From a virus (lineage: Duplodnaviria > Caudoviricetes), in IMG/VR virus record IMGVR_UViG_3300020577_002562, positions 123,210 through 187,209 of that record: a stretch of DNA of 64,000 bases. One strand, written 5' to 3'. Numbering within the stretch: position 1 is the stretch's first letter; each line of letters opens with the position of its first letter. Shown here in pieces: positions 1,945-8,425 of this stretch. The position numbers were made by a program, and so were the translations under genes. Below the pieces are notes generated by a model. The model saw nothing but the letters and a program-made list of their open reading frames with translations, did not search any database and was not told where the DNA came from.

Positions 1945-2907
1945 CTACCACTTGATTCCGATGGTTGGACTGTCGTCAACTACTCTACGCCCCTTGTTCA
2001 TGTACTTCATGGCGACTTGTACCTGCTCTCGGTCGATCTTGAATCTCTCAGGCTTGTAGGTCTGCCAGAAGCAAGTGCGCAGACAGCCACGACTAGGGCC
2101 GTAGTCCTCTATGAAATGCTTGATCAACGGTTGTTGCTTGCCGTCCACCACTGTCCGTATACGTGCAGTCTCTTGCGCCAGCTTAGGTGGATTGGAAATC
2201 GGTATGACCTCGTAGATGGTGTCCCATCGCGGGATGTTCAAGCCGACTTGCACGATCCGTCGGATACCAACGATGATGCGAATGCGGCCGCTTCGCGCAT
2301 CTTGCAGTATCTTAGGACGCTGCGTGTTCCGTTCGACCTGACCAGTGAATGCGGCAGCAATGTCGCGGTCTTTCCCAGTCATACGTCGGTATGCCTTGTT
2401 CAGCACGTTGGTCAGCAGCATCGCGTGCTTCACTCGATCCACCGGGATGACGATTGACCGGTCGTGCTTGATAACGTCCTTCAGCGCGTGCTTGACTATC
2501 AGTGTGTTACGTTGCTCGTTGTTGGACAACCAAGTGATAGCACCCGGCCATGTCTTGTGACCGGCGTGCGTAACCCCAGTCTCTACGAACTGAACACTAG
2601 GCACCAGCGTATTGGCTTGCCCCTCGGCACGTACAGGACCGATCACCAACTGAGAGAGTATGATCTTGCCATCTTTGCGATCATACGTCCCCGTCAGTCC
2701 GATCATGTACAACGAGTTCAACTGAGCCACTACTTTGAGGTACTCATCCGCCGCAGTGTCGTGGCAATTATGAACGAGCACACCTTTGTCTGAGTCTGGG
2801 CCATAGACAAAGTAGTTGTGATGCTGCTCCACTCCTATATCGTACACATCTACAGGCGCATCCAGTTTGATATGCTCTACTGATGACACTCTCACTAATT
2901 TTGTCAT
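1945..2907 (-). CDS. split intein C-fragment (47 aa, 2767-2907) + C-terminal half of SF2 (UvsW-like) helicase
   Basis: VYDIGVEQHHNYF...LVHN|C (intein blocks F/G); then CH, GLTGT, VGLNIP, QETARIR helicase motifs. Confidence 0.92.
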   Translation of the reverse strand: MTKLVRVSSVEHIKLDAPVDVYDIGVEQHHNYFVYGPDSDKGVLVHNCHDTAADEYLKVVAQLNSLYMIGLTGTYDRKDGKIILSQLVIGPVRAEGQANTLVPSVQFVETGVTHAGHKTWPGAITWLSNNEQRNTLIVKHALKDVIKHDRSIVIPVDRVKHAMLLTNVLNKAYRRMTGKDRDIAAAFTGQVERNTQRPKILQDARSGRIRIIVGIRRIVQVGLNIPRWDTIYEVIPISNPPKLAQETARIRTVVDGKQQPLIKHFIEDYGPSRGCLRTCFWQTYKPERFKIDREQVQVAMKYMNKGRRVVDDSPTIGIKW

Positions 2908-2937: not shown

Positions 2938-3966
2938 ATGTTACGTCAAGATCATCCGCGATTTCATCAAATGGTGTCCCGACATAGAGCCCTGTGCTCA
3001 GTAAGAAAGATAAAATTCACTGCCAAGATTGTTGACTTGAGCACTACACGTTATTTACATCGTTGTCACTGTGGTCATGCTTGGAAGCAAACTATATCGA
3101 ACTTTGTTGGCCGTACTGGATGTCCTGCTTGTGCGATGCGGCGTTTTCAACTAGCTGGAGCAGCTTCCGCGCGTGGAAAACCTGCGCATACGAGACTAAC
3201 AAAAGGGGAGTTTCTGAAGCGGCTTCCTAAAGGCTATCGTCTAATCGGATCTTACTCAGGACAACGCGAACTAGTCTCATTGAAATGCCCACAAGGTCAC
3301 ATAAGACGAACTACAGCGGACAACGCCCATCGTTATGGCTGTGGTGTATGCTCGGGAGTTGAAGTTTCACTTGACTCCCACAACAAGCAATTGGCTGCTC
3401 TGAATGACCGTGTTCGTTGCCTGCAGTATTTTGGGGCACGCACAGCATCCAGATACCATTGTCTACAGTGTAAGTTTCGCTGGTCTTGCATCCCTACAAA
3501 CATTTTGAAGACTAAACGATGTCATTGTCCGAGCTGTCAACCACCTGGCGTAACTGTCAGATGCGTCAAGCTTGGGCGTCGCAAAGTGCTTGTTCGTGGA
3601 TACGAGCCACAAGCTCTAAACTATTTGATACAAGTGAAGGGGTACAAACCTAACCAGATTCGTACAGAGCTTGAGGGAACTGTCCCAAGAATCAAAGTCA
3701 ATGGGCGACTTCATAAACCCGACTTTTTCATCCCAAGCGATAACCGTCTGGTAGAAGTCAAGTCGATTTTCACTCTCGGACTCAACGGTGAGCTATATTT
3801 CAAAAGAGCATTCCAGAAGTTGAAGACTAACCACGCAAAAGCCCGGGAGGCAGGGTACCGATACAACTTGCTAGTTTTTCTCAAAGACGGAACGCGAGTA
3901 GACATACCTAGTAAGTGGTATCTATTGAGCACTGAACAAATGCGACAGTTACTTCGACAACAATAG
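2938..3966 (+). CDS. putative homing endonuclease, repeated Zn-ribbons + PD-(D/E)XK domain
   Basis: multiple CxC..H..W / CPxC repeats; PDFFIP..N.LVEVKS motif; opposite strand to neighbours; paralog of 7056-7895. Confidence 0.85.
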   Translation: MLRQDHPRFHQMVSRHRALCSVRKIKFTAKIVDLSTTRYLHRCHCGHAWKQTISNFVGRTGCPACAMRRFQLAGAASARGKPAHTRLTKGEFLKRLPKGYRLIGSYSGQRELVSLKCPQGHIRRTTADNAHRYGCGVCSGVEVSLDSHNKQLAALNDRVRCLQYFGARTASRYHCLQCKFRWSCIPTNILKTKRCHCPSCQPPGVTVRCVKLGRRKVLVRGYEPQALNYLIQVKGYKPNQIRTELEGTVPRIKVNGRLHKPDFFIPSDNRLVEVKSIFTLGLNGELYFKRAFQKLKTNHAKAREAGYRYNLLVFLKDGTRVDIPSKWYLLSTEQMRQLLRQQ

Positions 3967-4965
3967 CTCGTCATTTACCGTTAACTCCGATGCCTTCACG
4001 TAATCTTGTCTAGTAACCGACCAAAACTTGTGGTTCGGAGTGCACAGAAGTTCTCTACCATCAATAGTGACGCGCACGAGATGGGTAACAGCTTTCTTTG
4101 TGAAGCTCTCTATGGGTTTGAATTCTCGTTTCCCAGATTGATGATTGAAGCACTCGACAGTCGTCTTGTAGCCGCTTTCTACAATATCACCTAAAGACAT
4201 CAGCCCATTTTTGGTCTTTACTCTATGACCATAGGTGAAGCATTCATCTATGATGATGGTCCCAAAGTGATCCTTGATCTGTTCAAGCTTCTTCTTGCCA
4301 CCAGCAGACAAGAACGTTTGATACGTACACAGCACGATGTCATACTTCAGCATATCCTTGACATCAGTGACTATGCCAGCGATCTTGCGTCCGTTGAACT
4401 TCTCTAGGTCGTCAATGTTGGTTACTGCATCCGCACCTTTGAGCGACAGCATGAACTGGCGCAACCAATCGATCTGGGCCGCAATGATCAGCGTGCGATA
4501 CCCGATCTTGATCGAAGCAGCTATCGCCATCACTGTCTTGCCCGAACGCGGCGGAGACAGTAAGACACCCCGCTTCTTCTTGATGATCGTGCGTACAGGA
4601 TCGCGTTGATTCTTCCAGAGCTTGCCTGTGAATTCGATGGCGTGACGAAACCGCTTGTATTCGGAAGCAGGCTTCTCTCTAGTGACAGTGATCGGCTTAC
4701 CAACTACTTCCTTGACGATTGACGGACGTCCCAACGGTAAACCAAGCATGCCATCTCGTTTGGTCCACAAGTGGTAAGTGCCCCGGAACTCAGGGCATTC
4801 GTCGCAGATGTCACAGTGACGCTCTTCTAGGTACTCACATTTGTTGCATGCTTTCTCGTTGTAGATGCGGATAGTCAGGTGTTTTTTGGCACGCTCTACA
4901 TTCTGCTTCGTAGCTGGCACCCACAGCTTGGAATTACGTACCGCCTCAACTGCTTGAGTCTTCAT
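3949..4965 (-). CDS. N-terminal half of SF2 (UvsW-like) helicase + split intein N-fragment (97 aa, 3952-4242)
   Basis: PPRSGKT Walker A; IIIDE|CFTYGHRV (intein block A); LCTPNHKF (block B TxxH); ASELTVNDEL end. Confidence 0.92.
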   Translation of the reverse strand: MKTQAVEAVRNSKLWVPATKQNVERAKKHLTIRIYNEKACNKCEYLEERHCDICDECPEFRGTYHLWTKRDGMLGLPLGRPSIVKEVVGKPITVTREKPASEYKRFRHAIEFTGKLWKNQRDPVRTIIKKKRGVLLSPPRSGKTVMAIAASIKIGYRTLIIAAQIDWLRQFMLSLKGADAVTNIDDLEKFNGRKIAGIVTDVKDMLKYDIVLCTYQTFLSAGGKKKLEQIKDHFGTIIIDECFTYGHRVKTKNGLMSLGDIVESGYKTTVECFNHQSGKREFKPIESFTKKAVTHLVRVTIDGRELLCTPNHKFWSVTRQDYVKASELTVNDELLLSK

Positions 4966-6289: not shown

Positions 6290-6544
6290 TCAACGCAACC
6301 GAAGGGTCGCGTACTTGTTACTGCGGTTATCCGAGTAACGGAGGTACATATGCAGTCTGCGATGAGACTGCTGGATCTTCTGGCACAACAAGCGAGCGGC
6401 GCAGCTTATGTGGGTGATTGATCGGAGTACCGATCCGTCACCTGCAGCTGGATACGCTGCTCGCCACAGACAACGTCCCAGCTTACGTCTGTTTGACCAG
6501 ACGAATCGGTACCGTCGCTTATTTCCCTTGAGCTTGACTTTCAC
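6290..6544 (-). CDS. hypothetical basic protein
   Basis: GTGA overlap with upstream gene. Confidence 0.45.
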   Translation of the reverse strand: MKVKLKGNKRRYRFVWSNRRKLGRCLWRAAYPAAGDGSVLRSITHISCAARLLCQKIQQSHRRLHMYLRYSDNRSNKYATLRLR

Positions 6545-6945
6545 AGCACACCCTCCATCATCCAGGCCAATCGAACAATAGCTCGTTGAACGCGGGTCTT
6601 GTAGTCCGAAAACTCCGCCATGCTAGGTCCACTACGCGGTATCGTAGCCACTTTTTCGCAGCCTGGTCTGGATACAACTGTACCTTCATCTGTATGGTTA
6701 ACGTTTATGCCTTTGAGCAAAGCAAGCTCCAAAGCTTGATCCCCATCTAGTATGGGGTTCCACAGCGCAGTTAATGTTGGAGCAAGATGGATCTGGATAC
6801 CCCATCTATTCGTACCTTGTAAGAAAGTGGTCTTCCACCCAAACGATTTGGCTATATGCTCTAGACATACGCGATCACCGGGTCTCTGCATTCGTGGGTC
6901 GCCGTTGTTGACCTGCATCGCAACATCGTTCAGTTCTGCAATCAT
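6541..6945 (-). CDS. hypothetical protein
   Basis: ATG 6945 with GGGAG SD, overlapping the stop of the stranded remnant; WNP..D..QALEL motif. Confidence 0.6.
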   Translation of the reverse strand: MIAELNDVAMQVNNGDPRMQRPGDRVCLEHIAKSFGWKTTFLQGTNRWGIQIHLAPTLTALWNPILDGDQALELALLKGINVNHTDEGTVVSRPGCEKVATIPRSGPSMAEFSDYKTRVQRAIVRLAWMMEGVL

Positions 6946-7016
6946 GTAGCATGCTCCCGTTTGGTGGCAATCTCCAACGCAGACAAGCTGTTCTTCACTG
7001 CCCACGCTGCTTTATC
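6942..7016 (-). pseudogene. stranded copy of the C-terminus of the 7892-8425 gene
   Basis: translates DKAAWAVKNSLSALEIATKREHAT*, versus DKASWAIKNSLNALEIVTKREHSA* at 7892-7966. Confidence 0.9.
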
Positions 7017-7055
7017 CGAAAGTCACTAATTTGCACGTAGACACCGGAGAAATAT

Positions 7056-7895
7056 ATGCCTCCAGTTTTGCGTTCACAAGTTGAAGTTACTCGTCTACTA
7101 AATAGTAACAATCCAACTATACGATCTATATCCGAGTATAGAGGATGTAGAAGTGAAGGACAATTCGAGTGCTTAGAGTGTAAGCATGTTTGGTCAGCTC
7201 AATGGAGACGCATAATACAAGGCGCAACAAAATGTCCTCGATGCGTATCTGTAAGACTTGGAGGCAAAAACAAGAAAACGCACCAAGTCTATTGTGAAGA
7301 ACTTGCGTTGGTCGATCCTTCTATCCAGCCTCTAGAAAAATACGTCAATAGCTACACGGCTATTTTGCATAGACATGAGTGTGGGCATGAGTGGAGACTA
7401 ATGCCGTTAAACTCACTCCGCGGTAGAGGCTGTCCTAAGTGTAAGCTTCGTTTGCGCACCGTCAAATTGGGGGCCCGAAAGGTTAACGTGCGTGGATATG
7501 AAGCCATAGCTTTAAAGTGGCTTGTTCGTAACAAGAAAGTCAAACCGTCTGAAATACAAACACACAACGAGAAAACGGTACCTAATTTTCTATATCACCA
7601 CAGAGGTAGGCGAACATATTTCCCAGACTTTTACATACCCAAAACGAATTGTATAGTCGAAGTCAAGTCTTTATCAACCGTAGGCATTCTTGGTAACTTC
7701 TTTAATCTTAAACCTAGAACTCTGTTCTCGCTCACACAAGCCAAGGCTAAAGCTGTACTGAACGCAGGCTATCGTTTTAGACTATTGATCATGGGCAGCG
7801 ATGGCAATAGAATACCGACTCCGAAAGGATGGCTTCGTATGACACACAAAGAATTTTGCGCGTCTATCGGACCTGAGCATACCAGCAAACATTAA
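7056..7895 (+). CDS. putative homing endonuclease, Zn-ribbons + PD-(D/E)XK domain
   Basis: CxxCxHxW/CPxC repeats; VKLGARKVNVRGYE and PDFYIP..N.IVEVKS shared with 2938-3966. Confidence 0.85.
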   Translation: MPPVLRSQVEVTRLLNSNNPTIRSISEYRGCRSEGQFECLECKHVWSAQWRRIIQGATKCPRCVSVRLGGKNKKTHQVYCEELALVDPSIQPLEKYVNSYTAILHRHECGHEWRLMPLNSLRGRGCPKCKLRLRTVKLGARKVNVRGYEAIALKWLVRNKKVKPSEIQTHNEKTVPNFLYHHRGRRTYFPDFYIPKTNCIVEVKSLSTVGILGNFFNLKPRTLFSLTQAKAKAVLNAGYRFRLLIMGSDGNRIPTPKGWLRMTHKEFCASIGPEHTSKH

Positions 7896-8425
7896 GCGGA
7901 GTGTTCTCTTTTTGTGACTATCTCAAGAGCGTTTAGACTATTTTTGATTGCCCAAGAAGCTTTGTCGAGGTCTTCCACCACCAAGTTGACCATCTCAAGC
8001 AGAGAGTCTAGGTGATCTACACTTTCTTGAGCCCGCTGTGTCAGCAAATTGATCAGTGCTCGCTGACCGGTCTTGGTACGAACGCCCATATTCGATAGCT
8101 GGGACTGGTACTCGGATTCGATGTATCGTTGAATGCCGAACAGTACAGAGGCCAAGTAGTTCCTGTTGCGTGTGATCAGCAGTATGATTTCAATGCACCG
8201 GCTGCGATAGGACTGGTCTTGAAGCCCAGCCTCTGACAATTTGCGAGCACCGGATTTGCTGGACAAGAGGCGCACACCCCGAGCCTTGTGCAGCTTGATC
8301 ACCTCTTCCAGCCAAGTCTCGAACTGAGGGTCCACTGCACGCTTGGCTACTACTCTGAATGCCTTGTACCGTGTGTCTTGTCTTAACAGCTTACGCAGCT
8401 TGAGCAAGGAGCTAGTTGGCGCCAT
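7892..8425 (-). CDS. helical protein of replication block (possibly UvsY-like recombination mediator)
   Basis: coiled-coil character, size and context; function is a guess. Confidence 0.45.
   Translation of the reverse strand: MAPTSSLLKLRKLLRQDTRYKAFRVVAKRAVDPQFETWLEEVIKLHKARGVRLLSSKSGARKLSEAGLQDQSYRSRCIEIILLITRNRNYLASVLFGIQRYIESEYQSQLSNMGVRTKTGQRALINLLTQRAQESVDHLDSLLEMVNLVVEDLDKASWAIKNSLNALEIVTKREHSA

Follow-up and report, generated by a model that had tools for sequence, protein, structure and literature searches.

A putative mobile homing-endonuclease cassette with a substitute gene end in a jumbo-phage genome

Free-standing phage nucleases of the T4-like Seg and Mob types spread during co-infection by double-strand-break repair and drag flanking sequence with them, a process known as intronless homing. 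Their genes lie between other genes and replace flanking markers by co-conversion. The locus described here was found in a stretch of 64,000 nucleotides (nt), which comprises bases 123210-187209 of the viral record IMGVR_UViG_3300020577_002562 (187 kb, about 75% complete by estimate). This stretch is referred to as the window, and coordinates given without another name are positions in it. The interval 7017-7966 of the window is very probably a mobile homing-endonuclease cassette, consisting of a foreign but functional set of last 24 codons for the gene that it occupies, a nuclease gene in antisense orientation and a leader with a promoter-like motif. Unlike the Seg and Mob genes, this cassette is located inside coding sequence, and the imported and the displaced gene ends both remain. 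The gene that received the insertion is called the host gene in the following; the gene end joined to it is called the attached tail, and the gene end left beyond the nuclease is called the stranded tail. The locus contains the following features.

7017..7966: inserted cassette, 950 bp, with replacement tail, antisense nuclease gene and 5' leader of the nuclease
7892..8425, minus strand: host gene, 177 amino acids (aa), phrog_17451 family, apparently a hybrid of the native body (8425..7967) and the cassette-borne tail
7966..7892, minus strand: attached tail, 24 codons plus stop, cassette-borne and apparently foreign
7056..7895, plus strand: nuclease gene, 279 aa, free-standing and homing-endonuclease-like, antisense to the host operon
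7017..7055, plus strand: nuclease leader, forming the right-hand end of the cassette, with CACTAATTT at 7024-7032 and GGAG about 8 nt before the ATG
7016..6942, minus strand: stranded tail, apparently native, 24 codons plus stop, beyond the nuclease open reading frame (ORF)
6541..6945, minus strand: downstream gene, 134 aa, phrog_5086, with no assigned function

Gene hybrids have been described in fungal mitochondria, where they were made by mobile endonuclease ORFs (mORFs) in atp6 of Allomyces macrogynus and in atp6, atp9, cox2 and nad3 of Glomus sp. (Beaudet et al. 2013, PMC3630166, citing Paquin et al. 1994). The native copies in Glomus were 91-98% identical to relatives at the nucleotide level and the inserted copies 64-81%, and the differences were mostly synonymous (PMC3630166). 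The cassette in the window resembles the mORFs in that an endonuclease ORF is accompanied by a foreign C-terminal segment in frame with the resident gene, the native C-terminus remaining downstream of the ORF. Several features set it apart from them. The host is a jumbo phage and not a mitochondrion, and the nuclease is of the PD-(D/E)xK type with zinc-ribbon modules, whereas the mORFs encode LAGLIDADG or GIY-YIG enzymes. The nuclease is encoded antisense to the host gene, the 3' end of its gene overlapping the imported tail, and the stranded tail still serves as the start region for translation of the next gene.

A second related arrangement is that of the "fractured genes", in which free-standing endonuclease genes are found between the halves of split inteins, mainly in phages (Dassa et al. 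2009, PMC2677866). These endonucleases have a restriction-endonuclease fold, are located inside essential phage replication and packaging genes, and bring their own control elements (PMC2677866). Exactly this split-intein arrangement was seen with two paralogues of the window nuclease. The site at 7017-7966, in contrast, lacks an intein and has an unsplit gene, whose function would be preserved by a substitute gene end instead of protein trans-splicing. The family described by Dassa et al. is Vsr-like and His-dependent and was later named EDxHD, whereas the window nuclease keeps E, PD and ExK residues. Among PD-(D/E)xK and related homing endonucleases, I-Ssp6803I and I-Bth0305I (the latter of the EDxHD family; PMC3239194) share with the window nuclease a restriction-endonuclease-like catalytic fold and a multi-domain layout that includes separate DNA-binding modules. 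However, the window nuclease has invariant E, PD and ExK residues rather than EDxHD, is not intron-encoded, and matched no solved chain when its sequence was searched against known structures. The literature searched contained no published phage case in which an endonuclease cassette comes with a duplicated gene end.

The two tails and the empty allele

According to an earlier inspection of the DNA letters (the sequence-only reading), the tail of gene 7892-8425 recurs beyond the nuclease at 6942-7016. Coordinates and sequences were as claimed, and the attached and stranded tails were identical in 18 of 24 residues and in 46 of 75 nt. A scan of the attached-tail peptide through the six frames of the 64-kb window placed the stranded copy first (18/24); the runner-up agreed in only 8 of 24 residues, so that the repeat is far beyond chance. 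The insertion point is located between codons 153 and 154 of the host gene, inside the DIDKA motif. The nuclease ORF overlaps the host-gene stop by 4 nt, and both stop codons interlock in TTAA at 7892-7895. The stranded tail lacks a start codon and is closely preceded by two in-frame stops. It carries the GGGAG ribosome-binding site of the next gene (6958..6954), and its stop overlaps the ATG of gene 6945..6541 (ATGA), a coupling that the sequence-only reading had likewise described correctly.

The cassette interval forms a low-GC island, with a guanine-plus-cytosine (GC) content of 0.42-0.45 as compared with 0.52 for the window. In base composition the attached tail was like the nuclease and unlike the host-gene body and the stranded tail. 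Its GC content was 0.39, and that at third codon positions (GC3) was 0.33; the corresponding values were 0.43 and 0.38 for the nuclease, 0.53 and 0.63 for the gene body, and 0.52 and 0.58 for the stranded tail. The statement that the attached copy is AT-rich like the nuclease was therefore confirmed for the cassette in the window.

All additional alleles of the host gene were obtained through protein look-ups. Two close relatives, L005 and L006, were found by protein search on short contigs of the Joint Genome Institute. The metagenomic contig L006 contained an intact host gene of 177 aa and no nuclease. It aligned to window positions 8787-7940 with 85% nucleotide identity and then jumped to 7016-6794 (83%), and L006 is thus without exactly the interval 7017-7966. 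In this contig the gene body continues into a tail of the stranded type, which is ATGA-coupled to the same downstream gene (83% nucleotide identity). The L006 tail agreed with the stranded tail of the window in 62 of 75 nt (83%), the final 26 nt being identical, but with the attached tail in only 49 of 75 nt (65%). The 105 nt preceding the tail were 86% identical between L006 and the window (90/105). The tail of the more distant relative L005 (71% nucleotide identity) was also of the stranded type, with a KREHAT-type end. As both L006 and L005 end in a stranded-type tail, the stranded tail is read as the native one, and the attached tail as more foreign than the rest of the gene. The sequence-only reading had predicted that an empty allele would end in the stranded version; L006, nuclease-free and ATGA-coupled, does so, and the end of L005 is of the same type. 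The locus thus shows a presence/absence polymorphism at one precise site, with L006 empty and the window occupied at 85% nucleotide identity. As in the mORF hybrids, the native tail (83%) is closer to the empty allele than the inserted tail (65%).

In the cultured relatives JA13 and JA29 the host gene was directly followed by the next gene. A DNA search of the locus against cultured phages gave no match, and pattern scans of viral and metagenome contigs for further alleles of the host gene yielded no confirmed relatives. The tail of L006 was itself of mixed appearance. At positions 824-841 of the contig it starts like the attached tail of the window (17 of 18 nt) and then goes on like the stranded tail. 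This mixed tail could be due to chance, or to an earlier loss of the cassette in which the two tails recombined and left a scar.

The divergence of the tails was expressed as the proportions of synonymous (pS) and nonsynonymous (pN) differences. Five pairs of attached and stranded tails, each from the same genome, were computed. In each of them pS was at least 0.75, and the pooled values were 0.94 for pS, 0.22 for pN and 0.23 for pN/pS. The pair in the window had a saturated pS, a pN of 0.15 and a pN/pS of 0.12, values which, like the pooled ratio, resemble the mostly synonymous differences of the mORF hybrids. The pair of L009 gave a pN/pS of 0.08. Between lineages, stranded tails compared with stranded tails gave a pN/pS of about 0.2; those of L010 and L019 were identical in all 25 aa, with differences at 15 of 75 nt.

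The attached tail is farther from L006 (49/75) than the gene body is (90/105); together with the saturated pS and the pN/pS of 0.12 of the pair in the window, this fits a functional import from a more distant, AT-richer donor better than a tail recoded in place. The core of the sequence-only reading, invasion of the gene by a cassette with a replacement C-terminus, was supported by the empty allele and the recurrence. Its claim that the insertion had "duplicated and recoded" the gene end is better put as import, and its claim that the occupied site is immune to cutting is plausible. In our reading, the attached tail would belong to the cassette lineage and would have been a working gene end throughout, while the stranded tail would have been a working gene end until recently or would be repeatedly refreshed from empty alleles.

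Recurrence of the cassette and properties of the nuclease

For the nearest nuclease homologues (44-46% identity), the contigs of origin were identified. All seven homologues looked up were convergent with a gene of 177-179 aa and overlapped its 3' end, and in the six for which DNA was available this neighbour was assigned to the host-gene family. The overlap of nuclease and host gene was 4 nt in the window and ranged from 4 nt (L020) to 47 nt at the six other loci, most values being between 30 and 47 nt. Together with the window, the lineages with DNA numbered seven (window, L007/L008, L009, L010, L011-L013, L019 and L020). A second tail was present beyond the nuclease start in all seven lineages, at a distance of 39-70 nt from the start in the three in which it was measured. 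This second tail always began at the same D-K codon pair (once D-Q), and its stop was ATGA-coupled to the next gene also in L007, L009 and L011. In four loci the word AAATTAG started at a distance of exactly 24 nt from the junction, and the leader beside the stranded tail was conserved among the cassettes. The fixed position of AAATTAG indicates that the cassettes are homologous and have a fixed boundary.

The target of the insertion was the conserved DIDKA-coding site, at one codon boundary across the seven lineages. DIDKA is the C-terminal consensus and the most conserved motif of the host-gene family, and D152 and D154 were invariant in 101 sequences. An insertion inside the most conserved motif of a family is as expected of an endonuclease that aims at conserved sequence.

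The nuclease ORF of 279 aa is unbroken. The protein matched the Pfam families DUF7487 and DUF4379 (treble-clef zinc finger), and in PHROGs it matched endonuclease families. In an alignment of 15 homologues the residues E149, P190-D191 and E202-V-K204 were invariant, which corresponds to the classical PD-(D/E)xK signature. No invariant His was present in this alignment, and the EDxHD motif was absent. The nuclease is therefore outside the EDxHD family, and its likeness to these enzymes is structural only. The AlphaFold2 (AF2) model, with a predicted local distance difference test score (pLDDT) of 90, comprised two small treble-clef/zinc-ribbon modules and a C-terminal alpha/beta domain. Residues 128-269 of the model matched TnsA (Z 8.0; root-mean-square deviation [rmsd] 2.7; 106 residues aligned). 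The C-terminal domain also matched Vsr (Z 7.5), the catalytic domain of I-Bth0305I (Z 6.0; rmsd 3.5; 84 residues) and Hjc. The Z scores of these fold matches were middling, yet almost all of the matches were nucleases of the restriction-endonuclease fold. Foldseek searches with the models of the nuclease and of the host protein returned nothing significant. The model combines zinc-ribbon modules with a PD-(D/E)xK core that follows them. Because the ORF is full length, E, PD and ExK are invariant and the fold is that of restriction endonucleases, the nuclease looks active. A nuclease of the LAGLIDADG or GIY-YIG type encoded on the strand of the host gene was also considered and was rejected, the enzyme being of the PD-(D/E)xK type and encoded on the opposite strand.

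Proposed mechanism and alternative explanations

The following course of events is proposed. During co-infection the nuclease would cut nuclease-free alleles at or near the sequence coding for D-I-D-K-A, and repair of the break would copy the cassette from the occupied genome. The gene body would serve as the homology arm on one side, and the native tail with the next gene as the arm on the other. The imported tail would keep the host protein at full length; the native tail would be displaced downstream, and the next gene would still draw on it for its ribosome-binding site and start context. Because it differs in sequence, the imported tail would probably shield the occupied allele from being cut again.

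The arrangement of the locus, the empty allele, the reuse of one codon position in seven lineages, the foreign base composition, the coding-like divergence of attached and stranded tails and the intact catalytic residues are observations; cleavage, the cut position, immunity and the direction of transfer are inferred. Several points weigh against this interpretation. There is a single confirmed empty allele close to the window genome (85% nucleotide identity), as the contig of L005 stops 9 nt past the stop codon. The first 18 nt of the attached tail agree with L006 in 17 positions, and the AT-rich signature is specific to the attached tail of the window, being absent in L007 and L009. Bases beside the junction that would consistently separate attached from stranded tails, and could thus be an immunity determinant, were looked for and not found, the K codon being changed to CGC only in L009 and L011. 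The cleavage site may be at some distance from the point of insertion. As to recent transfer, no cassette occurred in near-identical form in two genomic backgrounds, and the closest nuclease was 46% identical. Finally, attached tails group with attached tails and stranded tails with stranded tails, a pattern that one old, vertically inherited insertion would also give. In the clade of L010, L019 and L020, attached tails agreed with one another in 19-22 of 25 aa and stranded tails in 20-25 of 25 aa, while the two tails of the same genome agreed in 15-19 of 25 aa.

This grouping looks as if the duplication predated the lineages, and the cassette might accordingly be an old immobile insertion that entered once in an ancestor and was then inherited vertically. 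The nuclease would perhaps have been domesticated, and the stranded tails would have been kept for expression of the next gene, whose ribosome-binding site and start are indeed held in the last 20 nt or so. The nucleases of the lineages are only 45-61% identical, and near-identical copies across backgrounds are lacking, as would suit an old insertion. We nevertheless consider such an origin unlikely. As far as the tails are concerned, it is disfavored solely because the stranded tails diverge like coding sequence. Expression signals would conserve the last 20 nt or so, and not the amino acids over 24-25 codons with saturated synonymous sites. An old insertion is also at odds with an empty allele at 85% nucleotide identity and with the foreign composition of the window cassette, and the nuclease identities (45-61%) do not track those of the host genes (26-80%). 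The evolution of the tails appears to fit continuing homing better than one ancient insertion.

The interval of 950 nt could also be regarded as intron-like and self-splicing, in which case the gene body would be joined to the downstream tail and the latter would be the tail used. In favor of this view, the insertion falls precisely between two codons, exact excision would bring the stranded tail into frame, and stranded tails do evolve like coding sequence. However, attached tails are under purifying selection and terminated by a stop codon, which would be needless for intron sequence, and the nuclease gene runs opposite to the host gene. A search of both strands of 6700-8200 against Rfam, with its group I and II intron families, gave no match at E<=1, although an uncatalogued ribozyme could escape such a search; in addition, a ribozyme would have little room, since the antisense ORF leaves free only the 39-nt leader and the 75-nt tail. 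A spliced intron is thus highly improbable at this site. It is scarcely credible, moreover, that the arrangement arose by a local tandem duplication which diverged in place, with a nuclease landing there by chance, or that it is a chimera of the assembly. Two diverged direct copies do flank the nuclease, but the gene body is 86% identical to L006 and the attached tail 65%, a difference that divergence in place since the split cannot give. The same boundary codon, antisense overlap and leader motif were present in seven independent assemblies from different samples, which speaks against both a duplication and a chimera.

Beyond the homing cassette proposed for this locus, a wider picture may be drawn with some hesitation. 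Nucleases of the DUF7487-type PD-(D/E)xK family would form a long-lived and still active homing system of jumbo phages, in which a split intein and an imported terminus are interchangeable devices that spare the host gene in essential replication and packaging genes. At the site of tail replacement the system would then persist as a balanced polymorphism of gain and loss. Stranded tails would be kept coding-like by recombination with empty alleles, and scarless loss by recombination between tails would leave hybrid tails such as that of L006.

On the interpretation as a homing cassette, a free-standing homing endonuclease that brings along a spare gene end can live inside essential coding sequence and needs neither an intron nor an intein, and a phenomenon of mitochondria would be extended to phages and to another nuclease family. 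It would account for orphan gene-end fragments and for sudden switches of codon usage at the 3' ends of phage genes, which mislead annotation. The empty allele and the seven occupied lineages represent a natural series for the study of homing dynamics in uncultured phages, and modular zinc-ribbon and PD-(D/E)xK nucleases with a candidate DIDKA-coding target may be possible new site-specific enzymes. The interest of the locus rests on the recurrence at one codon in seven lineages, on population-genetic evidence that points to ongoing homing, and on the split inteins of the same nuclease family in this genome.

Paralogous nucleases, host protein and surroundings of the locus

Two further paralogues of the nuclease were present in the same genome, each between the halves of a split intein, a niche known for homing endonucleases (PMC2677866). 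The features of these loci are given below.

4965..3949, minus strand: N-half of a fractured helicase, ending in the N-part of an intein
2907..1945, minus strand: C-half of the fractured helicase, starting with the C-part of the intein
2938..3966, plus strand: nuclease paralogue of 342 aa, 40% identical, antisense between the helicase halves
L003 (G000:113467-117105), outside the window: fractured large terminase, with the third paralogue at L003 2388..1498 between split-intein halves

The nuclease family is clearly mobile and has two different ways of sparing the host gene. At the locus of the cassette no Hint/intein domain was detected with Pfam in the host gene or in the stranded tail, and the site does not belong to the split-intein class. 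The C-terminal half of the terminase (L003) contained a second, contiguous mini-intein.

The sequence CACTAATTT (or GACTAATTT) was located 15-46 nt upstream of all three nuclease paralogues, at 7024-7032, G000 126102 and G000 115870. It occurred 9 times in the 187-kb genome as compared with about 1.4 expected occurrences. Either CACTAATTT or a CTAATTT/GTAATTT core was found upstream of six cassette homologues (L007, L008, L009, L010, L011 and L020). The stretch upstream of the L019 nuclease was without the motif core, but its annotated start is probably too late. Judged from its frequency and position, CACTAATTT may be a phage promoter element.

The host gene matched phrog_17451 with an E value of 2.6e-30, and its family comprised 411 cluster representatives at E<=0.001. 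The AF2 model of the host protein was all-helical (pLDDT 95.7), with the tail as the C-terminal half of its long final helix (residues 130-171). The imported tail retains the conserved positions of the family. A comparison of the model with T4 UvsY gave a Foldseek probability of 1.0 but an E value of 0.36; with VIA, Z was 9.6 and rmsd 3.1, with 128 of 136 residues aligned. As this was not above the level of generic helical bundles (Z up to 11.2), an identification as UvsY was rejected and the similarity was kept as a lead only. Sequence support for UvsY was not obtained either, since the family profile gave only a chance match against the PDB and the Pfam UvsY family found nothing in the genome.

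The proteins of the window showed about 30% identity to those of jumbo phages of Erwinia, Dickeya and Pseudomonas. The locus is situated in a replication module on the minus strand, with a clamp-like gene, two small genes, the host gene and, further on, the helicase; this gene order was also found in cultured relatives. In the Dickeya phages JA11 and JA33 a tblastn match to the nuclease was obtained beside the homologue of the host gene. It was rejected as a cultured occupied allele of the tail site, as it is a paralogue that splits the neighboring helicase. In JA11 (L015, NC_048077.1, 128551-131657) and in JA33 the "DNA repair helicase" is annotated as two coding sequences with an unannotated nuclease homologue between them, while in JA13 (L014) and JA29 the helicase is one gene. 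For the helicase-targeting paralogue, JA11 and JA13 thus provide an occupied and an empty allele in cultured phages. Antisense nuclease homologues were also seen in two other cultured jumbo phages. In Yersinia phage fHe-Yen9-02 (L018, 54282-55340) the homologue is flanked by a helicase piece and a hypothetical gene, and it shares 64 nt with the 3' end of the helicase. In Pseudomonas phage PaBG (L017) the neighbors of the homologue gp297 carry the annotations DHH phosphoesterase and SbcD.

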